From the NCBI GenBank assembly GCA_017520675.1, contig JAFXFG010000003.1:1-56565 (forward strand): DNA of 56,565 nucleotides, given 5' to 3'. A program made the translations under genes and the position numbers. The notes beneath the pieces are model-generated. The model saw nothing but the letters and a program-made list of their open reading frames with translations. It did not search any database and was not told the origin of the DNA. This stretch comes from Alphaproteobacteria bacterium (GTDB lineage: Bacteria; Pseudomonadota; Alphaproteobacteria; Rs-D84). Below, piece after piece: positions 10,737-56,565 of the stretch (within the stretch, counting starts at the first letter, position 1; every line of letters begins with the position of its first letter).

Positions 10737-10740
10737 AAAA

Positions 10741-10770
10741 TAAGTCGCTGATGGGCGACTTATTTTTTTT
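10741..10770. terminator. bidirectional hairpin between convergent genes
   Basis: aagtcgc tgatgg gcgactt flanked by an A-run and a T-run. Confidence 0.6.
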
Positions 10771-11485
10771 ATTCTGAAAAATATTTTGATTTTTGTGTTT
10801 TTGAATTTGTGTACATTTCGTTAAATAATCTTTCGGCCGCTTTTTTTGTGGTTGGTGCGCCATTGGTTGGTGTGTTATAGTCAGCACCGTTTAGAACAAT
10901 TAAACGCGTGGGTAACAATGCGTTGCCACATTCTATGTAGTATTGATTGGCGTCATAGTATTTTCCATAGCAATTACCGTTTTCGACGGCTGCAAAATTA
11001 TTACGTGCCAGCGATTGGCATGTTGGTTGTGCGCCATAAGTAATTTCACCGTTTTCAAGTGTTTCATCGGGATTGTCCAATATTCCTGGACACCATACAT
11101 TTACAAGTTGACCATTTACAGATACCTTGGTACCATCGTTTGATGTTTTGCGTGTTCCAAAACAATCGCGATTACTGGATAAGTTATTGATGTCATAGTC
11201 TGTTTTGATTTTTTTTCCTTGCTCGATTTCTTTGCGTTTTAATGCAACGGGTTCGCGAGCATCTGTGATTAATGCTTCTGGGCAGATTAGTTTTAGTCCC
11301 CAACAATTGCTGGTGTCGTCCCATGACTCTATGTTTCCCATTTCTATTAGGTAACCATATGTCATATTAGGATAGCAATTGGTTGGGTTTATTTTGCATA
11401 CTGTGGGACGCAGCCACCATGGTATAGTGGCGGCGGTTGCAGGGATTATGTTCATAATTAATATAAGATAAAATATTTTTTTCAT
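10769..11485 (-). CDS. secreted Cys-containing protein (238 aa)
   Basis: Signal peptide MKKIFYLILIMNIIPATAA. 10 Cys in the mature part. Confidence 0.65.
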   Translation of the reverse strand: MKKIFYLILIMNIIPATAATIPWWLRPTVCKINPTNCYPNMTYGYLIEMGNIESWDDTSNCWGLKLICPEALITDAREPVALKRKEIEQGKKIKTDYDINNLSSNRDCFGTRKTSNDGTKVSVNGQLVNVWCPGILDNPDETLENGEITYGAQPTCQSLARNNFAAVENGNCYGKYYDANQYYIECGNALLPTRLIVLNGADYNTPTNGAPTTKKAAERLFNEMYTNSKTQKSKYFSE

Positions 11486-11548: not shown

Positions 11549-13585
11549 TTATTTTGTAATGCAAATTCCCCATTTTTCGTGTGCTGGTGTTTGTGAATAG
11601 AATTTCATATTCTTTTCTGGTTCTTTTTTGGGGTTGTTGTCGTATTGAATCCATTGGCCGTCATGCTTTTCACATTCTGCGTTTAGTACATTGTATAGTT
11701 GTGTGCGCACCTGTGCTATTACTGTGTTTATGTCTTGGATTACAGATGGACTTAGCCCTTTGGTCGATTCTGATGGGCGGATGCAGGTTTCAAGCGCGTA
11801 TTGTGCGAATTTTTGGTATAGACTGCCGTTGTAATCAGAACAATTTGCGGTGTCTGTTGTGTAATCTGGCAGAACTGCACAAATTTCATTGCCAGGGGCA
11901 TAGGTGCGACATTCAAGTGGATATGTGTGTGCAACATTAAAGCTGTATGGACTGCATAATGTTTTTGCAAATTTTTCAAGTGATGCACGACAGTTGTTGG
12001 CGATTTGTTCGCTAACAATGTTGTGCATGGCGGTTACTAGTTCTTGTAGGCCGTTTGAGCCACCACCATATAAATTGCTGCATGCGTTTAATTTTTCCTG
12101 GCACATTGTTTCAGATAATTCTAGTCGCATACCGATTATATTTTGAACTTCTAGGTCTGAGAATTCTAGGAGTCGATTGTTTTCGTCTTCGTAGCAAGAA
12201 ACAACAGTAGCAAGGCATTCGTTCTTTACTTGGCGAATACGTTTTTGTTGTTCCTGGTGTATTTCTGTTATGGCTTGCCTTAAAAATTCGTCCCATATGT
12301 CTTGTGATAAATCACGACATGTGTTAAGACTATTTTGAGCGAATATTTTTTTGTCGTTTAATCGTGATACTAATAGGTTATTTGCGTTATTTGTTAATAT
12401 GTCGCCATCTAATGATGTCGCGTTGGAAAATTCATAAAAGTCGGCTGTGTATATTGGTTCGCCAGTTTGATAATTTAGGTATTTGCCTGTTAAATCAAGA
12501 CAATGAATATAATCTGGACCGCATGCTGTTTCGGCAGTTAAATCTTGGCGAATTAGAGATAGGCAGTCATTGATGCTAGAAGAATTGTGTGCGTTGTAGT
12601 TTTCAAGTCTGGCATTATCTAGGTCGTATTCTGTTTGTCTGATTTGTGAATTGGCAGATTTTAATTTTGAATCAAGATTGCTTATTAATAGCGAACAATC
12701 GTTTTCGATATACATGCTGTAAGCGGCAGTTACCATTTGTTTGGTCGTTTGGTTTGGACAACTGTCGGAAACCATTTCAAGACATTGGGCGTTTACAGTG
12801 TTGTAAAGTGTTTCGCCTGTTAAATCAGATATGTTTGTCCCGCCAATTAATTCAGATGTGTTCCATGATATGTTTATGTTCGATGAAAAATCAGCAGGAC
12901 TGGTTGGTGTAGATTGACGCTTAGACAGTATTTTATTGATGGAATTTAATGTCGATGCACTTTCTGAATTGTCGGTGATGTTTTCTTGGGCAAATTCACC
13001 TGCCGAGGCGGTTACCATAGCTGTTGCTTCGGCGGCGGTTTTGTCAACTGCGTAAATATTAAATGTTTTGAAATCTTGCAATTGTTCTGATGTTTGGGTA
13101 AGAGCGCGCTCTCTGGATTGAAGTTCGTATAGTTTTGATGAACATATACATCTGCGATATGTGTCATTTGCATTGCTGCAGAATTGGTCCATACAGGTAA
13201 AATATGCTTCGCGACAGGCGTTGTAATCTGTATTGAATGTGCTGGACGCGGGTGTGGTTAGTGTTGTGGCGGCACGTGATGTTCTTTGTATAATTGATGC
13301 GGCGGTTTGTTTGCGTGGAACGATAGTATTAGCTGTTTGTGGACGCGCTGAAATGCCACGACTGGATTGTCTGATTGTGTTGTTGGGGGCGGGGCGTGTA
13401 ATCGGTTGTGATTGTGTAGATTTAGGTATTGCGATGCGCGCGGAGGTTTTGTTCGTAGGTTCGTGCGGTTGGCGCGATAATGTGTTATGTGTTGGACGCT
13501 TGGGAGAATTTATATCACGAACAGCGGCATTGGATATTCCAATCCCGCAAGTCAATGCAATGATAAGAAAAAAAATCTTTCTCAT
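11549..13585 (-). CDS. large secreted Cys-rich protein, distant paralog of 14048..16255 and 16277..18814
   Basis: Start moved to ATG 13585 (MRKIFFLIIALTCGIGISNA). The TTG start in the track lies inside the predicted -35 box. Motif CREAYFTCMDQFCSNANDTYRRCICSS. Confidence 0.75.
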   Translation of the reverse strand: MRKIFFLIIALTCGIGISNAAVRDINSPKRPTHNTLSRQPHEPTNKTSARIAIPKSTQSQPITRPAPNNTIRQSSRGISARPQTANTIVPRKQTAASIIQRTSRAATTLTTPASSTFNTDYNACREAYFTCMDQFCSNANDTYRRCICSSKLYELQSRERALTQTSEQLQDFKTFNIYAVDKTAAEATAMVTASAGEFAQENITDNSESASTLNSINKILSKRQSTPTSPADFSSNINISWNTSELIGGTNISDLTGETLYNTVNAQCLEMVSDSCPNQTTKQMVTAAYSMYIENDCSLLISNLDSKLKSANSQIRQTEYDLDNARLENYNAHNSSSINDCLSLIRQDLTAETACGPDYIHCLDLTGKYLNYQTGEPIYTADFYEFSNATSLDGDILTNNANNLLVSRLNDKKIFAQNSLNTCRDLSQDIWDEFLRQAITEIHQEQQKRIRQVKNECLATVVSCYEDENNRLLEFSDLEVQNIIGMRLELSETMCQEKLNACSNLYGGGSNGLQELVTAMHNIVSEQIANNCRASLEKFAKTLCSPYSFNVAHTYPLECRTYAPGNEICAVLPDYTTDTANCSDYNGSLYQKFAQYALETCIRPSESTKGLSPSVIQDINTVIAQVRTQLYNVLNAECEKHDGQWIQYDNNPKKEPEKNMKFYSQTPAHEKWGICITK

Positions 13586-19712: not shown

Positions 19713-19722
19713 GTTAAAAAAA

Positions 19723-19751
19723 ATACCCCAAGATTAAACGTCTTGGGGTAT
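19723..19751. terminator. bidirectional terminator between mscS and fabF
   Basis: ataccccaaga ttaaacg tcttggggtat flanked by A- and T-runs. Confidence 0.75.
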
Positions 19752-19755
19752 TTTT

Positions 19756-21006
19756 TTAATTTACCTTTTTTAGAACAAGGCTGGCATTTGTGCCACCAAA
19801 ACCAAATGAATTGCTTAACGCGACATCGACTTTGCGTTTCTTGGCAGTGTGTGGAACAAGGTCTGTGTCGCCAACTGCGTCTTCTGGGTCATCCAGATTT
19901 ATTGTTGGTGGAACAATTCCATCGCGGATTGATAGGGCGCAGAATATAGCCTCAATCGCACCGGCTGCACCCAGTAAATGTCCAGTCATTGACTTTGTAG
20001 AGGACATAGATATTGGATTGCCTGCAAATAATGTTTGAACAGCAGCCAATTCGCCAACATCGCCAAGGCCCGTTGATGTACCATGCGCATTGATGTAATC
20101 AATATTTTCTGGTAAAAGTTTTGCATCGTTTAATGCCGCCTGCATTGCGCGCATCCCGCCCGCACCATTTGGGGCAGGGGCAGTAATGTGGTATGCATCA
20201 CCAGACATACCATAGCCTGCAACCTCAGCATAAATTTTTGCACCACGTGCAATTGCGTGTTCGTATTCTTCAAGGACCAGGATACCTGCACCTTCGGCCA
20301 TAATAAATCCATCGCGGTTTTTGTCCCATGGACGTGATGCGCGTTCGGGTTCGTCATTGCGAGTGCTTAGTGCCTTCATGGCGGAAAAACCAGCAAGACC
20401 GATACGGCCAACTGCACCTTCGGTGCCGCCGCAAATCATAATGTCTGCATCGCCATATTTGATAAGACGGGTGGCTTCGCCAATTGAATGGGCGCCAGTC
20501 GCGCAGGCTGTAACGGTTGATATGTTCGGGCCACCAAAACCATATTTAATTGATACATGACCAGCAGTCATATTAATGATTCCCTTTGGGATGAAGAAAG
20601 GACTAACACGACGTGGGCCACCATCATGTAATTCAATACAGTTTTCATATATTGTGTTCAGACCGCCAATCCCACTGCCAATTGATACACCAATACGGTT
20701 TTTATCACCTGTGTAATCAATCAAACCTGCGTCGCGAATTGCTTCGTCTGCGGCAACCATACCGTACATGATTGATTTGTCCATCTTGCGTTGTTCGCGT
20801 GGTTCGATAACACTGTCTGGATTATATTCCCCAGCACCTGTGCCATGTGTTGGAATGCCCGCAATTTGTGATGCGATGTCGGATACTTCAAATGAATCAA
20901 TCTTGCGAATACCGGATTTGCCAGCTAATATATTTTGCCATGCGTATTCAATACCTGTGCCAACTGGTGATACGATTCCCATACCAGTTATAACGACTCT
21001 TTTCAT
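19756..21006 (-). CDS. fabF: 3-oxoacyl-ACP synthase II
   Basis: MKRVVITGMGIVSPVG...ACATGAHSIG...HGTSTGLGD...SNSFGFGGTNASLV. Confidence 0.95.
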   Translation of the reverse strand: MKRVVITGMGIVSPVGTGIEYAWQNILAGKSGIRKIDSFEVSDIASQIAGIPTHGTGAGEYNPDSVIEPREQRKMDKSIMYGMVAADEAIRDAGLIDYTGDKNRIGVSIGSGIGGLNTIYENCIELHDGGPRRVSPFFIPKGIINMTAGHVSIKYGFGGPNISTVTACATGAHSIGEATRLIKYGDADIMICGGTEGAVGRIGLAGFSAMKALSTRNDEPERASRPWDKNRDGFIMAEGAGILVLEEYEHAIARGAKIYAEVAGYGMSGDAYHITAPAPNGAGGMRAMQAALNDAKLLPENIDYINAHGTSTGLGDVGELAAVQTLFAGNPISMSSTKSMTGHLLGAAGAIEAIFCALSIRDGIVPPTINLDDPEDAVGDTDLVPHTAKKRKVDVALSNSFGFGGTNASLVLKKVN

Positions 21007-26700: not shown

Positions 26701-27468
26701 ATGAAAAAATTAACTTTAACTTCTTTATTGACTGTCTTGGCTGTTAGTGGTGCAAATGCGGCAAATATTATTGATGGTAATCCGTTGTATCGCCCTGGCG
26801 AAGGTCGCTTTTATAGCAACTTTGCAATTGAATCACATACTGAGGCAATCGAGGACTGGAAAGTTGCGGAAGAATTTGGTTATGGTATCACAGATAGATT
26901 GGCTGTCTTTATGAAAACAAGTCTTTCTGAAACAGATGGTTTTGATTATATGTCTTGGAACGATTTCACAGTTGGCTTGAATTATCGCTTGTTAGATATG
27001 GGCAACTGGAAGGGTGATGTTTATGGTGTTTATTCTTTGAATCCTGTCTGGGGCGATCATATGCCATTCTTGGACGAAGCGTCAACGATGTATACATGGA
27101 CATTAGGTATGCGTGCGGGTTATGTTGGTGCGGGATGGACAGTCGCAGGACATGTTGACTTTGATTATCTGAACACAGAATCATTTAATTGGGGTGATGA
27201 TGGCGTACATAGTCTGAGTGCAGGATTGGATGCTCAATTGGTATTATGCCCACAATGGAACTTGATTGCTGGGGTTGAATACACCGGTATGCTGGATGAC
27301 CGTTTTGAAGATGCGGGTCGTTGGACTGGTAAGTTTGGTGCCAACTATAATCTGGATGAAACCAAATACATTGGTGCATACATCATGGGTGAAATGGAAC
27401 ATTCCACAGGCGACTGGGAAGTTGTTGATGGGATGGGATTTGGTGTGAACTTTGGCATCGAATTTTAA
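26701..27468 (+). CDS. small outer-membrane beta-barrel protein (paralog of 29380..30129)
   Basis: Signal peptide MKKLTLTSLLTVLAVSGANA, alternating beta-strand pattern, C-terminal GVNFGIEF. Confidence 0.7.
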   Translation: MKKLTLTSLLTVLAVSGANAANIIDGNPLYRPGEGRFYSNFAIESHTEAIEDWKVAEEFGYGITDRLAVFMKTSLSETDGFDYMSWNDFTVGLNYRLLDMGNWKGDVYGVYSLNPVWGDHMPFLDEASTMYTWTLGMRAGYVGAGWTVAGHVDFDYLNTESFNWGDDGVHSLSAGLDAQLVLCPQWNLIAGVEYTGMLDDRFEDAGRWTGKFGANYNLDETKYIGAYIMGEMEHSTGDWEVVDGMGFGVNFGIEF

Positions 27469-27473
27469 AAAAT

Positions 27474-27577
27474 AAATATAATAATTCATCTAAAAGCGGG
27501 ACGGGAATCTCATGTAGCGTCAGTACACTACGATTCCCGTCCCACTTTTATCTAAATCATTCTATTTATTTTTTTTG
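27474..27577 (+). repeat. hairpin repeat element, copy A
   Basis: 5' flank ataattcatctaaaa; arm gggacgggaatc (27498-27509); core tcatgtagcgtcagtacactac; arm gattcccgtccc (27532-27543); 3' flank ttttatctaaatcattctatttattttttt. Confidence 0.85.
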
Positions 27578-27587
27578 TGTGGTGCGT

Positions 27588-27680
27588 ATAATTCATCTAA
27601 AAACGGGGTGGGGTGGTTCATGTAGCGTTTGTACACTACACCAACCCCAATCCGTTTATCTGTACGGTTATCTTTTTGTA
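27588..27680 (+). repeat. hairpin repeat element, copy B
   Basis: Same flanks and core (tcatgtagcgtttgtacactac). Arms cggggtggggtggt / accaaccccaatccg are imperfectly complementary. Confidence 0.8.
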
Positions 27681-27690
27681 AAAAATCTGA

Positions 27691-27718
27691 TTGCAAAAGT
27701 TCTTAATTTCGGTATAAT
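27691..27718 (+). promoter_or_regulatory. sigma-70-like promoter TTGCAA-16-TATAAT
   Basis: TTGCAA at 27691-27696 and TATAAT at 27713-27718. Confidence 0.55.
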
Positions 27719-27724
27719 TCAAGT

Positions 27725-27989
27725 TGAACCGGATGGGAATCTGGTTCGGGGCTGTGCTAGGCCCATGACTTTCGGTGCAAATATGTTTAGGCGTCGTAAT
27801 CCGACAGTATTTTTCGTATTTGCACTGTATCTAAATGTCCCTGACGATATGTCGGGGGGCTGTCCGCTATGAAACAGGTGGCGTAACACCAAAGGCGGGC
27901 AGAGTCATTAAAGTCATGATTTAGCAACTCCCCGACCGTCTATGTTTCCCATAGCGGTTTTTTTAACAGAAAATAGAAGGGAGTCCTGG
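27725..27989 (+). promoter_or_regulatory. conserved structured 5' leader RNA (riboswitch/attenuator candidate), copy 1
   Basis: Repeated on the minus strand at 49296-49579. The two copies show compensatory changes in at least four helices. Ends in a terminator hairpin just before the RBS aagggag. Confidence 0.7.
27936..27964 (+). terminator. leader-internal intrinsic terminator
   Basis: ccgtctatg (27936-27944) / catagcgg (27950-27957) followed by T7 (27958-27964). Confidence 0.65.
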
Positions 27990-29216
27990 ATGAAAAGATT
28001 TTTAACAACTGGATTTTTTGGCGCAATTCTGGGGATTGTTATAGGCGGCGCGCCAGCGGATGCGTCGCTGATATCGCGCGGATTCTTGGACGAGGTCCTG
28101 ACCAGTTACGCCACCAACACTGCACTGGATTTAAAAGCAAACCAAACCGACCTAACCGCATTATCAAATAAAATCGGCACATTGCCAGAGGGGACAATTG
28201 ATATTGGAGGTATTGGTCTTAGTGAAATGTTTGGCAAAGAAAAATCGTTCCCTGTAACAATACCATCAGATTATACATTGTCAGATGCATTTCAAAATCT
28301 ATTTTATAGCGAGGGTGTTTTCCCCAGTTTTGTAGACATCGCTGAATATACCATGTACGGCGGAACTTTGTCTTCATATTGGGAAAGTATTTATGGTATT
28401 AAAACTTACAAAGGGTTATTAGAATTAACCAAAGATATCGGCACATTGCCCAGTGGGGAAATTGTTAGTTATGGTCCACCGTTAATTGAGATGTTGCAAG
28501 ACTATTCCTATCAATATCCCAAAGATTTAGCAGGGATATATGATGTTTTGTTTGGTACTGGAGAAAATATGGGGGTGCTTGAACGGTTTGCAACAAGTAC
28601 GTTATTTGGAGTACCGAATTCATTTAGTGGACTTCTTAGTATCGGTACTGTACCAGATGGCAAAAATCTTGCAGGTATGATAAGTGAAACCGATGCCAAA
28701 ATCGGCACATTGCCAAGTGGGGTTTTTCCTGTTTTTCCAGGAAATATGTTTCTCTCTGTTCTTAACCAACCATATACATACCCAACAAGTTTAGCAGAAT
28801 TAATCACTGCAATATACGGCAATGCAGAAACTGGCGTACACGGATTATTGGAAGGCATTTTTATTGGCTTTCCATATTATGATACAGATGGCGATGGTCA
28901 AAAAGAACCAGGTGTAGGCCTAATGCCAAATTTCAACCTTGCGAAGAATGCAAACAATCTTGCTACCACTGCAAATACTACTGCAACTGCGGCAAAAACT
29001 GCCGCCGATGCCAACACTGCCAAAATCGGAACTCTACCAACCGAATATGCGACAGTTGGGGCGGCGCTGACCGCGATAAAATCGGATATTGATGCAAAAA
29101 GTCTGCCCAGCACATCTGCTGATGGGCAATATGTGTTGACTGCTAAAAAAGTTGGCGAAACTATTAGTTATACTTGGGTCAAGATGGATTTGACAAATGA
29201 AGAGCAATCACAATAA
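27990..29216 (+). CDS. secreted/surface IGTLP-repeat protein
   Basis: Start at ATG 27990 (RBS aagggag). N-terminus MKRFLTTGFFGAILGIVIGGAPADA. Five IGT[LV]P modules. C-terminal block KIGTLPTEYATVGAALTAIK is shared with 48504..49295. Confidence 0.8.
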   Translation: MKRFLTTGFFGAILGIVIGGAPADASLISRGFLDEVLTSYATNTALDLKANQTDLTALSNKIGTLPEGTIDIGGIGLSEMFGKEKSFPVTIPSDYTLSDAFQNLFYSEGVFPSFVDIAEYTMYGGTLSSYWESIYGIKTYKGLLELTKDIGTLPSGEIVSYGPPLIEMLQDYSYQYPKDLAGIYDVLFGTGENMGVLERFATSTLFGVPNSFSGLLSIGTVPDGKNLAGMISETDAKIGTLPSGVFPVFPGNMFLSVLNQPYTYPTSLAELITAIYGNAETGVHGLLEGIFIGFPYYDTDGDGQKEPGVGLMPNFNLAKNANNLATTANTTATAAKTAADANTAKIGTLPTEYATVGAALTAIKSDIDAKSLPSTSADGQYVLTAKKVGETISYTWVKMDLTNEEQSQ

Positions 29217-29290: not shown

Positions 29291-29379
29291 GTAGTATGGC
29301 GATGGTGTTGGAATTCGTTCCTGTTTATCTGTTTATTCTTATGTTTTATTATTATTTTGCGAAGGAAAGGGGTTTCTTG

Positions 29380-30129
29380 ATGAAAAAAATATTTGTTTTG
29401 TCTGGTGTTTTATCTTTGGTGTCTGGTGCGGTTAATGCCGCTAATGTTATTAATGGCAATCCGTTCTATGGGCCAAAGCAGGGGCGATTTTACAATATTT
29501 TAACACCGTTGCAGATGAATTCTAAATTTGATTATTTTGTTATGACTGACGAATTTGGTTATGGTATTTCTGATGCCTTTACAATTCACTTGGCGACCAG
29601 TGGTTCGTATGATTCTTCGGATAATCCGCAGTTTGGTAAATGGGCTTGGAATGATTTAGAATTTGGCTTTGATTGGGATTTGTGGCATGAAAATGAATTG
29701 CATGCCGAAGTCTATGGTGATGTGCAGCAGATTTATAATACAAAACATAATTTGCAAACGGTGGCTTATAACTGGACATTGGGGGCGCGCGTTGGTCGTA
29801 TGACGGATTCTTGGACTGTTGCCGGTGTTGTTGAACTGGATTATCTGAATGATGATTTGCCACAAGATACTTTTGATGCCTGGGCAATGACGGTCGGTAT
29901 CCAAGGACAATATATCGTCAACAATAACTGGAACTGGGTTGCAGAATTGATGTTTGATTTTGATTTGTTCGATGACTATTACAATGGCGAGCAATTGCGA
30001 CTTAAAATCGGCGCGAACTACAATTTGGATGAAACGAAATATTTGGGCTTTTATGTTTCCAAAGACTTGGTGCATGGGTTTCAGAGTAGTCCGGCTGAGA
30101 TGGGGGTTCAATTTGGCATCGACTTCTAA
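29380..30129 (+). CDS. small outer-membrane beta-barrel protein (paralog of 26701..27468)
   Basis: Start at ATG 29380 (MKKIFVLSGVLSLVSGAVNA). Shared motifs NGNPFYGP..GRFY, GANYNLDETKY and C-terminal GVQFGIDF. Confidence 0.7.
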   Translation: MKKIFVLSGVLSLVSGAVNAANVINGNPFYGPKQGRFYNILTPLQMNSKFDYFVMTDEFGYGISDAFTIHLATSGSYDSSDNPQFGKWAWNDLEFGFDWDLWHENELHAEVYGDVQQIYNTKHNLQTVAYNWTLGARVGRMTDSWTVAGVVELDYLNDDLPQDTFDAWAMTVGIQGQYIVNNNWNWVAELMFDFDLFDDYYNGEQLRLKIGANYNLDETKYLGFYVSKDLVHGFQSSPAEMGVQFGIDF

Positions 30130-30139
30130 AAAATAAAAT

Positions 30140-30530
30140 CTAATAGCATATCTAAAGCGGATTGGGGTTGGTTCATGTAGCGTCTGTACACTACACCAAC
30201 CCCAATCCGTTTATCTATACTATTATCTTTTATTTTTTTCGCTAAGCAAGGGATGGGGTGGTTGGCTTATGTAGCGTTTGTACACTACGCCAACGGATTT
30301 TTCGCATATCTACACCATTCTAATTTATTTTTCGCTAAGCAAGGGGTGGGGTAGCGTCTGTATACTACACCAACCCCAATCCGTTTATCTATACTATTAT
30401 CTTTTATTTTTTTCGCTAAGCAAGGGGTGGGTTGGCTCATGTAGCGTCTGTACACTACGCCAACGGATTTTTCGCATATCTACTTTATTTTTTTGCTAAG
30501 CAAGGGGTGGGGACAAATTGGTTTTTTGTC
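30140..30530 (+). repeat. tandem array of about 4.5 hairpin-repeat units in two alternating subtypes
   Basis: The core tcatgtagcgtYtgtacactac (or deleted variants of it) occurs four times. cgctaagcaagg(g)gtgggg junctions lie at about 30240, 30342 and 30413, with a truncated copy (gctaagcaaggggtgggg) at about 30495. Confidence 0.85.
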
Positions 30531-30607
30531 GTTTTTATAATAGTGGGAAATGTCCTGAAAAATGCGAGTTTCAAGCCTAAAAATTATATTTTTTTCCTAG
30601 TTTTTCC

Positions 30608-30636
30608 TTGACAATCTGGGGGGTGGAGTTTATAGT
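30608..30636 (+). promoter_or_regulatory. str-operon promoter TTGACA-17-TATAGT
   Basis: TTGACA at 30608-30613 and TATAGT at 30631-30636, about 150 nt upstream of rpsL. Confidence 0.55.
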
Positions 30637-46859: not shown

Positions 46860-47237
46860 ATGGCACGTATAGCAGGTGTTAACATTCCTTCGGAAAAACG
46901 CATTGAAATTGCGTTGCAGTATATTCACGGTATTGGGCCGGCAAAGTCGGCACAAATCTGTGCGGCTTTGAAATTAAAAGACGGTTTGCGCGCAAAAGAT
47001 TTGACAGACGAAGATGTTATCAAAATTTCTAATTATATCGAAGATAACTTTAAAGTAGAAGGCGATGTTCGTCGTGAAGTTACTATGAATATCAAACGTT
47101 TGCAAGACTTGAAAACCTATCGCGGTATTCGTCATCGTAATCGTTTGCCAGTTCGTGGTCAACGCACTCAGACAAACGCACGTACACGCAAGGGTAAGCG
47201 TGTTGTAGTGGCTGGTTCCGCAACCAAGGGTAAATAA
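46860..47237 (+). CDS. rpsM: 30S ribosomal protein S13
   Basis: [26 protein letters not shown]. Confidence 0.97.
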
Positions 47238-47345
47238 AAATTAATCTAATGCGTGCATCTATGCGCGTTGGGCTTTGGTCATGTAGCGATTTGTACACTC
47301 CCGTCGCCCAACACACATATCTGCAACATTATCTTAATTTTTCAA
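47238..47345 (+). repeat. hairpin repeat element, degenerate copy G, in the rpsM-rpsK spacer
   Basis: Core tcatgtagcgatttgtacact with arms gttgggc (47267-47273) / gcccaac (47306-47312). The aatctaat...atcta 5' flank resembles the first unit of the array at 30140. Confidence 0.7.
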
Positions 47346-47401
47346 ATAAGGTAGAGATTAACACGATAGTTAATTGTAGACATCGAAAAAGGTAAAATAA
47401 A

Positions 47402-47785: not shown

Positions 47786-47792
47786 GATATTA

Positions 47793-47820
47793 AATCCCAT
47801 CGTTTGATGGGATTTTATTA
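47793..47820 (+). terminator. intrinsic terminator after rpsK
   Basis: aatcccat cgtttg atgggatt followed by ttattatt. Confidence 0.65.
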
Positions 47821-47841: not shown

Positions 47842-48477
47842 GTGAAAAAAGTCTATAAATTATCCGAAGAAAATTATAAGCAATTGTTGGCTGTGTTGCA
47901 TAAGTTTGGTAATAATAAGAATGCAATCAATTTGTTAAATAGCGCGGATGTTGTCATTGTGAAAGATAAGAAAACGAAAAAAAATATACAGAGTCTTGAT
48001 AATCAAAAGGAAGTTTTGACCGATAGAAAAATGAAAGAAATATTCGGGGGAAATTATCAAGGCTTAGTTTTTTATAATTATGATTATGAAAAATGGAATG
48101 TGAAAAATCCACTGGATTCGAGTTTGAAAAATAAGACCTATGCATTGAATCTGATAAAAAGAGTTATGGACGAGAAAATGCAAAATATGCAAATGGAATT
48201 GGTTGCAATAATTACTATGCCGGTTGCAGATTCAAATTATGTTGGTTGGGGTAAGAGTTTGCAGAATTTAAAATATGATGCATCTGGACATGTGTTGGTT
48301 GGTACTTTGTTATGGCGTGATACGAATACAGGTAAGTTATTAAGTTTTGCTGATAATTGGCAACAGGGCGAATTGTTTCTGTGTGAACGCAATTCAAAAG
48401 AAGATGCGATAAATCGCTTTGTGCAGGATGTTATGCGATACAATAATTTTCGTGATGGGATAAGTCGTTTGAGATAA
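47842..48477 (+). CDS. hypothetical cytoplasmic protein (211 aa), GTG start
   Basis: RBS aggag 6 nt upstream of GTG 47842. No signal peptide and no motif I recognise. Confidence 0.6.
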   Translation: MKKVYKLSEENYKQLLAVLHKFGNNKNAINLLNSADVVIVKDKKTKKNIQSLDNQKEVLTDRKMKEIFGGNYQGLVFYNYDYEKWNVKNPLDSSLKNKTYALNLIKRVMDEKMQNMQMELVAIITMPVADSNYVGWGKSLQNLKYDASGHVLVGTLLWRDTNTGKLLSFADNWQQGELFLCERNSKEDAINRFVQDVMRYNNFRDGISRLR

Positions 48478-48483
48478 TATAAA

Positions 48484-48508
48484 ATAATCCCCAATAAAGG
48501 GGATTATT
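48484..48508. terminator. bidirectional hairpin between convergent genes
   Basis: aatcccc aataaa ggggatt (48486-48505). It overlaps the stop codon of the minus-strand gene. Confidence 0.6.
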
Positions 48509-49295
48509 CATTTGTGGTTGTGGTGGTTTCGCTTTCGCGGTCAATTTTTTCCCAGCGATATGTTGCATTGTCGCCAACAATATCAACCGTCAGAACAAAT
48601 TTACCAGTTGAACCCTCGGCCTTAGGGTCTGGAATTGCAGATAGTGCGGCGGCCTTGGCATCTTCGGCGATACCCTTAATCGCGGTTAGCGCCGCCCCAA
48701 CAGTCGCATATTCAGTTGGTAATGTACCTATTTTATTAACTTCTTCAGTTAATTTTGGTAATCCGTAGACAGTTTGGGCGGTTCCAGAGAGGTTGGTCAT
48801 ATTTCCACCGTAAGAAAGTAAATACGAAAAGCCGTTTTCGTTGCTATAATTATTATATAAAGCCTCGTAATCATGAAATATTTCGTCCAATCTAATGGGC
48901 CAAAATGTATCCCCTCTTTGTTGCTTAAATAAGCGTGCCATTATGCCGGCTACCCCAGGAAATTCAGGGTCAGTATAACTTAATTTTAAAAATTCAGAAA
49001 TATCATTTGTTGGAATAGGGGTGGTTTTTTCTTGGTCATTAAAGAAAAAAATACTACTTGCATTTTCAAGTCCAGCTAAAATATCCCAATATGTTAATTC
49101 TGCTGGGGTGCCGATTATGTCTGATAATGTGGTTAAATCGCTTTGGTTTGCTTTCAAATCCAATGCGGTGGTGGTGGCATAGTTTTCCAGTGCTTCGTCC
49201 AAGAATCCGCGCGACACCAGTGCTGCATTCGCTGGCGCGCCAACCGCAAGTCCCAATATCGTGCCAAATAAACCTGTTGATAAATATTTTCTCAT
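48504..49295 (-). CDS. secreted/surface protein, shorter paralog of 27990..29216
   Basis: MRKYLSTGLFGTILGLAVGAPANAALVSRGFLDEALENYATTTALDLKANQSDL closely matches the N-terminus of the paralog, and the C-terminal block KIGTLPTEYATVGAALTAIK is identical. Confidence 0.8.
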   Translation of the reverse strand: MRKYLSTGLFGTILGLAVGAPANAALVSRGFLDEALENYATTTALDLKANQSDLTTLSDIIGTPAELTYWDILAGLENASSIFFFNDQEKTTPIPTNDISEFLKLSYTDPEFPGVAGIMARLFKQQRGDTFWPIRLDEIFHDYEALYNNYSNENGFSYLLSYGGNMTNLSGTAQTVYGLPKLTEEVNKIGTLPTEYATVGAALTAIKGIAEDAKAAALSAIPDPKAEGSTGKFVLTVDIVGDNATYRWEKIDRESETTTTTNE

Positions 49296-54730: not shown

Positions 54731-56341
54731 ATGGCAAAAGATATTACATTTGATACAGATAAATTAGCCGCAGGGGTTGATAAACTGGCTAATGCAGTAA
54801 AAATTACTATGGGGCCAAAGGGGCGCACTGTCGTTATTGAAAAGTCTTATGGGGCGCCTGTTGCAACCAAAGACGGGGTAACGGTTGCCAAGGCGGTGGC
54901 TCTGTCAGATCCACAAGAAAATATCGGTGCGCGTATGGTTCAAGAAGTCGCAAAGAAAGCAGGTGATGATGCAGGCGATGGAACAACAACCGCGACTGTC
55001 TTGGCGCAAAAGTTAATTCGTGAGGGACGTCGTGTTATTGCCGCTGGTATGAATCCAATGGATGTTAAGCGCGGTATTGATATGGCAGTTGCCGCAGTTG
55101 TGGCAGATATTACAGCACATGCGCGTCCAGTGAAAGATAGCGCAGAAATTGCACAGGTCGCAACAATATCTGCAAATTCAGATAGCGATATTGGCGAAAA
55201 AATCGCGGGTGCAATGGCGCGTGTTGGTAAAGAAGGTGTTATCACAGTAGAAGAAGCAAAAGGACTGGATACAGAAATTGATGTGGTCGAAGGTATGCAG
55301 TTTGACCAAGGGTTTATGTCGCCTTATTTCGTAACAAACAGCGAAAAGATGTTGGCAGAATTAGATGGTGCACAAATACTGGTTTCTGAAAAGAAAATCA
55401 CTGGTTTGCAGGCACTGTTGCCAATATTGGAACCTGTTGCACAGTCTGGAAAACCGTTGTTGATTATTGCAGAGGATGTTGAATCAGAGGCATTGGCAAC
55501 ATTGGTCTTGAATCGTTTGCGTGGCGGATTAAAGGTTTGTGCAGTCAAAGCACCTGGCTTTGGCGACAGACGCAAGGAAATGTTGAAAGATATCGCGGTG
55601 GTAACAGGTGCAACAGTTATTTCTGATGATATGGGAATGACTTTTGAAAATATTACACCTGCTGTTTTGGGTAGTGCAAAAAAGGTCGTTGTGTCCAAGG
55701 ATTCAACATTGTTGGCGCATGGGGCAGGGGATAAGGACGCAATTGCTGCGCGTGCCGATGAAATACGCGTCGCAATTGCAGCATCCAGCAGTGATTATGA
55801 TCGTGAAAAATTGTCAGAGCGCTTGGCTAAATTAGTTGGTGGGGTCGCTGTTATCAAGGTTGGCGGTATGACTGAGGTCGAAGTAAAAGAAAAGAAAGAC
55901 CGCGTTGATGATGCGCTGGCGGCGACACGCGCTGCGGTTGATGAAGGTATCGTTGCAGGTGGTGGTATTGCATTGGTTCGTGCAGTTGCTGCTTTGCAGA
56001 ACTTGACCGGTGCGAATGCTGATCAGAATGTCGGTATTGATATTGTTCGGCGCGCAATTGTTGCACCATGTGCACAAATCGCAGAAAATGCAGGTGTTTC
56101 TGGTGAAATAGTTGTCGGCAAAGTAATGGAATCAACTGAATATAACTTTGGATATAATGCCCAGACTGGTGAATATGTTGATATGATGGCGTCTGGTATC
56201 ATCGACCCAGCCAAGGTTGTAAAAACGGCGCTTTCTGCAGCGGCAAGCACAGCGGGTGTAATGTTGACCACAGGTGCGGTGATGACCGAAATCCCCGAAG
56301 ATAAGGTTGGTGGGACGCCAGCGATGCCGCCTATGATGTAA
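54731..56341 (+). CDS. groEL: chaperonin GroEL
   Basis: MAKDITFD...[12 protein letters not shown]...; ends in a Met-rich tail, PAMPPMM. Confidence 0.98.
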
Positions 56342-56345
56342 AATT

Positions 56346-56446
56346 AAATATAATAATTCATCTAAACGCGGTGCCGGAAACTCATGTATCATTTGTACAC
56401 ATCGTTTCCGGCACTGCGTTTATCTAAACCATTCTATTTAATTTTC
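56346..56446 (+). repeat. hairpin repeat element, copy H1
   Basis: ataattcatctaaa flank; arms cgcggtgccggaaac / gtttccggcactgcg; core tcatgtatcatttgtacacatc; tttatctaaaccattctattta flank. Confidence 0.8.
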
Positions 56447-56452
56447 AAAATT

Positions 56453-56552
56453 AACCATAATAATTCATCTAAAACCAATCCCGCCAACTTATGTAACTTC
56501 TGTACACTGCGTTGTCGGGATTGATTTTATCTAAATCATTATAATTAATTTT
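56453..56552 (+). repeat. hairpin repeat element, copy H2
   Basis: Same flanks; arms caatcccgccaac / gttgtcgggattg; core ttatgtaacttctgtacactgc. Confidence 0.8.
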
Positions 56553-56565
56553 ACCGCCTTGCAAG

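Follow-up and report, generated by a model that had tools for sequence, protein, structure and literature searches.

A clade-specific family of interspersed palindromic repeats at gene ends in Candidatus Enterousia

The window analysed here covers positions 1–56,565 of a metagenome contig (JAFXFG010000003.1, forward strand) from an alphaproteobacterium of the order Rs-D84. Several of its genes are followed by copies of a palindromic repeat, whose family is interspersed in the genomes of Candidatus Enterousia (order Rs-D84) and specific to this clade. The element occupies the gap between the stop codon of a leading-strand gene, most often a housekeeping gene, and its ordinary terminator, and is oriented like the gene. 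A complete unit is an interrupted hairpin of ~105–115 nt with an A/U-rich outer stem, ATCT loops, a G+C-rich inner stem and an apical stem-loop.

Repeat arrays in the window

A covariance model (R1) was built from 131 copies of the repeat, and the window was scanned with filters off. Eight units detectable by the model and two remnants are grouped in four arrays, all on the + strand. An earlier note on this DNA, made from the sequence alone, had placed at least ten copies of a hairpin repeat here, and the R1 units and visible remnants lie at those positions. The core motif ATGTA-N4-8-GTAYAC has eight matches in the window, all on the + strand, compared with 0.17 expected. Each array begins at the stop codon of a + strand gene: two genes for outer-membrane-protein (OMP)-like products (26701–27468 and 29296–30129), rpsM (46860–47237) and groEL (54731–56341). 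The OMP label, taken over from the earlier note, finds no support in Pfam, where neither window protein has a match; it is plausible in view of the signal peptide of both proteins and their C-terminal motif GxxFGIxF.

Behind the first OMP-like gene, a full element at 27464–27578 (R1 116.9 bits; fold −40.1 kcal/mol, z −8.6) holds the TAA stop codon (27466–27468) inside its 5′ outer stem. The left half consists of the outer flank (27466–27487), ATCT (27488–27491), AAAA (27492–27495) and the left arm (27496–27509), and leads to the apical core tcatgtagcgtcagtacactac (27510–27531). The right half mirrors this arrangement with the arm (27532–27545), TTTT (27546–27549), ATCT (27550–27553) and the outer flank (27554–27577). 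The second element of the array (27584–27676; R1 48.6 bits) has a truncated left outer flank beginning tataattcatctaaaa, and its arms, cggggtggggtggt and accaaccccaatccg, are imperfectly paired. An open reading frame (ORF) of 97 aa at 27579–27872 overlaps this element and is probably spurious. Further downstream, a promoter-like TTGCAA-16-TATAAT (27691–27718) is followed by a leader of ~220 nt and then by a 424-aa ORF without a Pfam match (27942–29216), which sits between the two OMP-like paralogues.

The second OMP-like ORF probably starts at an internal ATG (MKKIFVLSG..., signal peptide), and its 27 upstream codons (29296–29376) look non-coding. Its stop codon (30127–30129) falls within a full element at 30126–30241 (R1 109.3 bits; −46.3 kcal/mol, z −11.1) that carries type 2 flanks, AAAATCTAATAGCATATCTAAAG...TTTATCTATACTATTATCTTTTATTTT. 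Tandem degenerate units occupy 30242–30545, where R1 gives partial matches at 30261–30294 and 30416–30480. These units are laid out as a linker, cgctaagcaagggg, with a G-rich left arm, then core, right arm and right flank; their cores lie at 30267–30290, ~30354–30371 (5′-truncated) and 30437–30460. The 5′-truncated unit (~30335–30415) and a remnant (~30497–30545) were read from the sequence. According to the tail motif alignment, the last linker leads to a small terminator-like hairpin, gacaaa..tttgtc, followed by a T-run (~30514–30540).

The stretch between rpsM and rpsK, within the operon for ribosomal proteins, carries a diverged element (47232–47347; R1 72.4 bits; −34.3 kcal/mol, z −5.2). 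Its apical spacer is 6 nt long, its arms are imperfect and ATG/CAT replaces AAA/TTT; an orthologous copy with related arms is found in another species (locus L023, 1240–1353). The ribosomal operon is broken further on (47842–49295), where rpsD (47842–48477) is followed by a convergent 263-aa ORF without a Pfam match and not by the usual rpoA–rplQ. After groEL (stop codon 56339–56341), the first full element (56336–56450; R1 116.1 bits; −41.1 kcal/mol, z −12.1) represents the subfamily cgcggtgccggaaac / gtttccggcactgcg with the core variant ATGTATCATTTGTACACATC. The second full element (to ~56552; R1 match 56451–56548, 84.1 bits) falls in the region 56451–56565, in which the start of a tail hairpin (accgccttgcaagg...) comes after it. 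This array continues past the window end: in locus L001, over 11826–12060, it has two more tandem units (11826–12010) and then an ordinary terminator.

Structure and covariation of the unit

The first units of 131 arrays were aligned, and a 44-pair model spans the unit between its A-rich 5′ and T-rich 3′ ends. Under this model 88.3% of cells are paired, compared with 34–42% when the partners are slid by 1–3 columns. The covariation score is 0.398 against 0.05–0.085 in the slid controls, and none of 500 shuffles reached the observed values. Compensatory changes on both sides occur in 34 of the 44 pairs, which strongly supports the structural constraint proposed in the earlier note. An independent RNAalifold prediction contains the inner 21 pairs and shows compensatory changes in 16 of these, and single window copies fold at z −5 to −12.

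The flanks had been described as direct rather than inverted repeats; they are inverted as well, and pair as an A/U-rich outer stem that contributes 21+4 further pairs. Compensatory changes in this stem include AAATTAAAT/ATTTAATTT versus AAATAAATT/AATTTATTT and AATAATTC/ATCATT versus AATGGCAT/ATACCATT. The T-rich sequence seen after the copies is indeed present, but it is the 3′ half of the outer stem. This stem, which often contains the TAA stop codon of the gene, exists in at least two matched versions (AAATTAAATATAAT/ATTCTATTTAATTT, AAATAAATTATAAT/ATTCTAATTTATTT and the "type 2" ..TCTAATGGCAT/ATACCATTATC..). The ATCT motifs are opposed and form a symmetric internal loop, with one or two AUCU/AUCU loops per unit, and AAA/TTT covaries with ATG/CAT, GCG/CGT and GTG/CGC. 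A self-contained small-RNA gene in each unit was also considered. This idea rested on TATAAT in the type 1 flank and was rejected; the type 2 flank reads TCTAAT, and there is no conserved −35 element.

The G+C-rich inner stem measures 13–19 bp, with an arm of 13–15 bp in the aligned units, and its sequence varies between subfamilies while always remaining paired. Sequence and alignment agree with the earlier observation that the arms are complementary within each copy. The arms are not, however, unrelated between copies, as had been thought from the window: they fall into about ten recurrent classes with a shared ..CCGG/CGGG.. centre (for example NCAAATCGGGMATC, GCGGTGCCGGMAAY, GGGTTGGYAATGGC, GAATTGKGGGTRTC, GTGAACCCGCAACC and CCAATCCCGCCAAC), and each class occurs at many loci and in many species. 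What had been called arm turnover under constraint is real as to the constraint, but it largely represents the spread and shuffling of a limited set of subfamilies and not free drift.

The apical stem-loop is TGTA-N7-TACA inside YCATGTAGCGTTTGTACACTAC (in RNA, UGUA-N7-UACA in YCAUGUAGCGUUUGUACACUAC). In a divergent copy, CGTGTAT-N5-ATACACG, the apical helix is extended by compensatory changes. Invariance of the core in the 131-copy alignment is partly by construction, because the copies were selected on the core. In a model-based search of 50 loci, an altered core was found in only ~4 of ~60 full-length units, indicating that the core is truly much more conserved than the arms, as the window copies had suggested. 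Consistent with this result, the apical ATGTA..GTACAC is kept in about nine in ten units that were not pre-selected by the search pattern. Judged from its sequence, the conserved apex fits sequence-specific recognition rather than a plain hairpin, and the conserved loop and ATCT loops together argue for a specific, putative partner. With 44 covarying pairs and a conserved loop, the family is a well-supported structured motif, which again suggests a specific binding partner.

Two further features of the unit deserve mention. The cores (27512–27517, 30175–30180 and others) begin with ATG-TAG or, in another subfamily, ATG-TAA, placing a start codon and, directly after it, a stop codon in the apical loop of ~90% of units; this start-stop mini-ORF has no consistent ribosome-binding site ahead of it. 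Most units are then followed by a small second module, a tail hairpin YCCNCC-GCAAGG-GGNGG (variant CRC-TAATY-GTG) with a G-rich tract. The tract acts as the poor left arm of a degenerate next unit or leads to an ordinary terminator, and degenerate half-units and a terminator may also follow together. After the tail hairpin, G-rich tracts sometimes read GGGTAGGG, resembling the E. coli KOPS octamer, or GGTGGTG, all on the leading strand. Regarding a possible G-quadruplex, four G-runs are present in only some of the G-rich tails.

Gene ends, replication strand and turnover across the clade

A species-representative genome collection was scanned with the strict pattern ATCTAAA..ATGTA-N6-GTACAC..TTATCT, for which we estimate ~1.5 chance matches, and at least 111 loci were returned. 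All source metagenome-assembled genomes (MAGs) among the matches listed are Candidatus Enterousia or (uncultured) Alphaproteobacteria bacterium, from ruminant, chicken and other gut samples. Two MAGs among the matches listed, 125_22-69 and KS320-82, are assigned to Enterousia (order Rs-D84); their genomes measure 0.75–1.0 Mb and have a coding density of ~90% (PMC12306168). The window has identical units and gene contexts in common with two MAG loci (L063 and L115), and the 17–22-nt core is conserved across many species-representative genomes. A search of viral contigs, plasmids and phages found no copies; the family is restricted to the Enterousia clade in every collection searched. Rfam 15 gave no match at the gathering threshold over the whole window. 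At a relaxed E-value only sub-threshold long-hairpin miRNA models appeared and no family, the alphaproteobacterial near-match being limited to Wolbachia sRNA 46 at E = 8.8, which is noise. A literature search found no description of the repeat family either, so that identity with a described family, raised in the earlier note, was not encountered. The repeats have a practical side as well: they break MAG assemblies and can be misread as ORFs or small RNAs.

Array statistics cover the listed loci, taken as 8-kb contig tiles (0.88 Mb), and the window, 0.94 Mb in total. They comprise 133 arrays, of which 92 have one unit, 30 two, 9 three and 2 four. The total of 187 units is an undercount, because units with altered cores are missed. 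Successive units of an array always follow each other head-to-tail, and none of the 133 arrays is of mixed orientation. The upstream ORF is on the same strand in 121 of the 125 arrays for which one could be called, and in 117 of these 121 the stop codon lies within a 26-nt span of a fixed point of the element. Often the stop codon or the last one to three codons are inside the 5′ outer stem. Of the four apparent exceptions, L064 is regular once its GTGTAG core is recognised, and in L098 the edge of the locus has probably produced an artefact. Genes downstream of the arrays run in the same direction in 56 cases and converge in 50. These counts substantiate the gene-linked, strand-specific 3′ position noted in the window; the random orientation and position that would have spoken against it are not seen, and structure is conserved.

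The upstream genes belong to 29 families, mostly housekeeping. They include EF-P (in 15 species), an AMP-binding enzyme, secretin, YebC, FtsK, a TrxB-like protein and ClpB, and also DnaN, DnaA, SecB, LeuRS, AspRS, MurG, FabF, S11, S13, GroEL, an autotransporter and OMP-like proteins. The efp site is occupied in all 15 species sampled, the sampling being conditioned on presence.

Ordinary terminators commonly lie just downstream of the arrays. At the rpsK site of the window, the stop codon is directly followed by a plain terminator, whereas in another species (L023) three units stand between the stop codon and the same terminator. These filled and empty sites, together with the downstream terminators, indicate that the units occupy the 3′ untranslated region (UTR) and are not needed as a terminator. 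No clear target duplication is visible in this comparison, which is one between species. The weaker R1 matches in the window (10733, 19714 and 47782) are ordinary bidirectional terminators, and the genome therefore uses conventional terminators too. At 10738–10772, 19716–19758 and 47786–47812 the window has short bidirectional intrinsic terminators (A-run, 8–11-bp G+C stem, T-run), found at convergent gene ends and after rpsK.

Given these observations, we regard it as quite improbable that the unit itself is a Rho-independent terminator, an oversized standardised cassette in which the G+C-rich inner stem and the following UUUU(A)UCU would release the transcript. Such a cassette would explain why units are found at gene 3′ ends only and why the 13–19-bp inner stem, set between an A-run and a T-run and continuing into TTTT(A)TCT, resembles the bidirectional terminators of the genome that R1 weakly matches. 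It would not explain why ordinary terminators come after the arrays, why a copy is found in the rpsM–rpsK spacer, which transcripts need to read through, or why the 3′ outer flank past the U-run covaries with the 5′ flank, and it would make arrays of up to four or more units redundant. A terminator scan called no unit, although its loop limit of 8 nt excludes units of this kind. The terminator role, one of two that the earlier note saw as fitting, is thus unlikely to be the primary one.

In the loci examined for it, the units also have a fixed relation to replication, a polarity that the earlier note missed. In the window, GC skew ranges from +0.2 to +0.35 across genes of the + strand and from about 0 to +0.13 across those of the − strand, and all units are on the + strand. 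The strong skew places the whole window on one replichore with + as the leading strand. No unit was found at the roughly seven − strand transcription-unit ends in the window, where the − strand has ~1/3 of the coding sequence. In 20 of 20 further loci profiled, which represent one gene family each, the G-rich strand is the one that carries the element, and L064 agrees; opposite-strand genes in the profiled loci have a skew near zero. Twelve contigs are represented by more than one tile, over distances of up to ~110 kb, and the ~36 arrays on them agree in orientation throughout. We estimate the chance of such concordance at ~1e-5 if 70% of genes are on the leading strand and at ~0.02 if 90% are, as is the case for essential genes in some bacteria.

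The copies at orthologous sites show considerable turnover. At efp, yebC, ftsK and dnaN, arm classes and flank types differ between species. Unrelated loci can have the same inner unit, down to a shared mismatch, an identical inner unit can be found with different yet internally matched outer stems, and chimeric units join the left arm of one class to the right arm of another. After yebC, one unit (L011, 5148–5262) has its core inverted relative to flanks that keep the gene orientation, whereas the orthologous L049 and L086 are regular, which is evidence that the arms mediate loop inversion. This is the signature of copies that spread and recombine rather than drift slowly by descent, and the mosaics show maintenance by recombination or gene conversion. 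The rpsM–rpsK copy is an exception and looks vertically inherited. Contigs from the DNA runs break at the repeats, and the apparent joints are mostly other copies elsewhere; they are therefore silent on insertion polymorphism.

Polarity and turnover both bear on the proposal that the repeat is a selfish, non-autonomous element without a host function, moved as single-stranded DNA (ssDNA) in the manner of IS200/IS605, of REP-RAYT or of a new recombinase. The enzyme would act on the hairpin formed by the lagging-strand template and would recognise the apical loop and ATCT flanks. Integration would occur without target duplication beside TAA(A) at leading-strand gene ends, in the harmless gap between stop codon and terminator. 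A strictly replication-linked orientation is what this proposal predicts, and it is seen in the window, the 20 profiled loci and L064, in the multi-tile contigs without discordance, in the − strand transcription-unit ends without units, and at one site (L093/L104, described below) where units follow the leading strand and not the adjoining genes. Near-identical inner units with a shared mismatch at unrelated loci, different subfamilies at the same orthologous site, and an rpsK site that is filled in one species and empty in another without visible target duplication are likewise in keeping with it, as is the unequal folding of the two strands, expected of a strand-specific DNA substrate.

Several observations nevertheless count against this proposal, which we consider somewhat unlikely but a serious rival to the reading favoured below. 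No transposase and no TnpA or TnpB gene was found, in a survey in which ORFs were not screened for Y1 domains and no genome-wide protein search was made. The RAYT signature of a gene flanked by inverted units does not occur in the 0.88 Mb of loci, where mixed arrays are also lacking. Lagging-strand genes have units next to them at one orthologous site, far less often than insertion at harmless sites would predict, and the efp site is filled in every species of a sample conditioned on presence. Genomes below 1 Mb seldom retain active transposons, the repeat is missing from viral contigs, plasmids and phages, and the leading-strand bias may partly reflect the essential, highly expressed genes located there. 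More doubtful still is the specific version in which a replication-polar ssDNA hairpin, as the non-autonomous partner of a putative HUH-type or other recombinase, would integrate precisely at leading-strand TAA without target duplication. If gene-end targeting of this type were true, the family would be a new kind of mobile DNA persisting in genomes below 1 Mb.

The same polarity, extending over >100 kb, could in principle belong to a DNA-level signal for replication, segregation, recombination or uptake. The unit could serve as a primosome or single-strand initiation hairpin, its G-rich tail could contain a polar site of the KOPS or Chi type, or its core could include an uptake sequence, and both the conservation of the 17–22-nt core across many genomes and the tails that sometimes read GGGTAGGG would suit such a signal. 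We think this very improbable: no signal of this kind needs to abut a stop codon or to form a 44-pair hairpin with variable arms, the density is about one array per 14 kb at gene ends only, and KOPS-like octamers are found in only some tails. An uptake sequence, in particular, was rejected as it leaves the variable paired arms unexplained.

Interpretation and relation to known repeat families

We tentatively favour, with a probability of about 0.4, the reading that the repeat is a 3′-UTR hairpin module similar to REP, SPRITE and QMITE elements, co-transcribed with the gene, acting on the stability or processing of mRNA 3′ ends and shuffled by recombination. The element would be transcribed with its gene as part of the 3′ UTR. 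Its RNA hairpin would then serve, as proposed for REP, ERIC, Correia and SPRITE elements, as a ribonuclease barrier or processing site that sets the stability and 3′ end of the upstream mRNA, and partial termination at the inner stem and U-run would be possible. The conserved apical loop and AUCU loops are candidate contacts for a trans-acting protein. Recombination or gene conversion would keep and reshuffle the copies, with the conserved flanks and core providing homology. Retention of the family in genomes below 1 Mb with ~90% coding density (PMC12306168) counts in favour of this reading. Metatranscriptome contigs, which were compared with groEL and the OMP-like region and are unstranded and sparse, run from an OMP-like coding sequence into the start of the element and across the array at 30234–30613, a hint of co-transcription. 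The hairpin may protect or process the 3′ end, as its analogues REP, ERIC, Correia, SPRITE and QMITE2 suggest.

Several points weigh against an RNA module of this sort. The metatranscriptome contigs are unstranded, have a depth of 2–12 and may include DNA. At one site, represented by L093 (4763–4985) and L104 (4845–4959), two units lie between two lagging-strand genes and are antisense to both, yet these units too follow the leading strand. It is the single true exception to co-orientation with genes. The leading-strand placement and this site point to a constraint at the level of DNA or replication that an RNA role alone leaves unexplained. In addition, the antisense strand folds better than the sense strand by 9–21 kcal/mol in five of five window copies (antisense/sense −58/−40, −50/−41, −47/−26, −59/−46 and −53/−34 kcal/mol). 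The difference comes from A.C and C.A mismatches that are fixed in the sense strand, in both outer stem and core, and for which the antisense strand has G.U pairs; this bias is opposite to the prediction of simple selection on a sense RNA hairpin. Wobble counts in the arms favour neither strand (19 G.U in the sense versus 13 A.C). Finally, covariation in a DNA palindrome can also come from subfamily spread or self-templated repair.

The RNA-module and ssDNA-mobile models are not exclusive, and a mobile origin could be combined with a domesticated role. If the favoured 3′-UTR reading is true, ~2% of a sub-megabase Enterousia genome, a large share of its non-coding DNA, is spent on one standardised hairpin module. 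Positioned behind core translation, replication, chaperone and envelope genes, this module would be an unusually clean natural system for REP-like control of mRNA ends.

REPs with GTAG or CGTC tags are found downstream of ORFs, often at a distance of <20 bp from the stop codon, which they sometimes provide themselves (Di Nocera et al., 2013, PMC3733652). The Enterousia repeat shares this location, just downstream of an ORF and near or supplying the stop, as seen in the 121 of 125 co-oriented arrays. Like REPs and BIMEs, it is a multi-copy palindrome found downstream of ORFs, between unidirectional or convergent genes, and both are thought to be transcribed into RNA hairpins. The differences are substantial. 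REPs measure 20–40 bp, compared with 105–115 nt and 44 paired positions in Enterousia, and have an unpaired GTAG or CGTC end tag, whereas the Enterousia units end in AAAWTAAAT.../...ATTTWATTT and contain GTAG only in the apical core. REPs, as in REPINs and BIMEs, are often inverted dimers, an arrangement seen in none of the 133 arrays, and GTAG REPs are linked to RAYT transposases. The conserved loop and variable stem of the Enterousia unit are the reverse of the REP/REPIN pattern; this and the lack of inverted dimers led us to reject a REPIN.

With an outer stem of ~21 pairs as terminal inverted repeats, small size, no coding capacity and 187 units in 0.94 Mb, the unit fits a loose definition of a MITE, for which target duplication and a parent IS are unproven. 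QMITE2, SPRITE, ERIC and Correia elements are analogues in location and proposed roles (PMC10969869). QMITE2 and SPRITE belong to unrelated hosts and have unrelated sequences, and they are not known to abut the stop codon as strictly, to be polar to replication or to combine a conserved loop with a variable stem. The ERIC elements of enterobacteria and the Correia (NEMIS) elements of Neisseria come close in form: they are imperfect palindromes of ~100–150 bp, co-transcribed into RNA hairpins that are cut by RNase E or RNase III, with changes in mRNA levels. ERIC and Correia elements have TA target duplications. They also occur in either orientation and on either side of genes, whereas the Enterousia units have one orientation and no visible duplication. 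The dual polarity of these units, to the gene and to the fork, is sharper than any known to us for REP, ERIC or Correia elements. Together with the one exception that follows replication, it makes the DNA- or RNA-level origin of repeat polarity directly testable.

Elements of the IS200/IS605 type have an orientation tied to replication direction, hairpin substrates and no target duplication. The Enterousia units share the replication-coupled orientation but lack separate left- and right-end hairpins, a single long hairpin being the whole element. The Rickettsia palindromic elements (RPEs) resemble the Enterousia units in being palindromic, in their size and in their persistence in alphaproteobacteria with reduced genomes. 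By description, however, RPEs are typically in frame inside ORFs and encode peptide segments, whereas the Enterousia units start at the stop codon or a few codons before it and overlap at most the last few codons, with no insertion inside an ORF confirmed. Integron attC sites were rejected: RYYYAAC...GTTRRRY boxes do not occur at the alignment ends, and the upstream genes are housekeeping genes at conserved positions.

The repeat thus differs from REP/REPIN, attC and Rfam families and, in not being inserted in frame, from RPEs, while its location is like that of REP, SPRITE and QMITE2 elements and its size and fold are like those of ERIC and Correia elements. We therefore file it as a new family inside a known class, the interspersed palindromic 3′-UTR repeats of REP- or MITE-like type, with a function that we infer. 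Within this class its traits are unusually strict: it abuts the stop codon, keeps one orientation to gene and fork, and combines a conserved loop with a variable stem.

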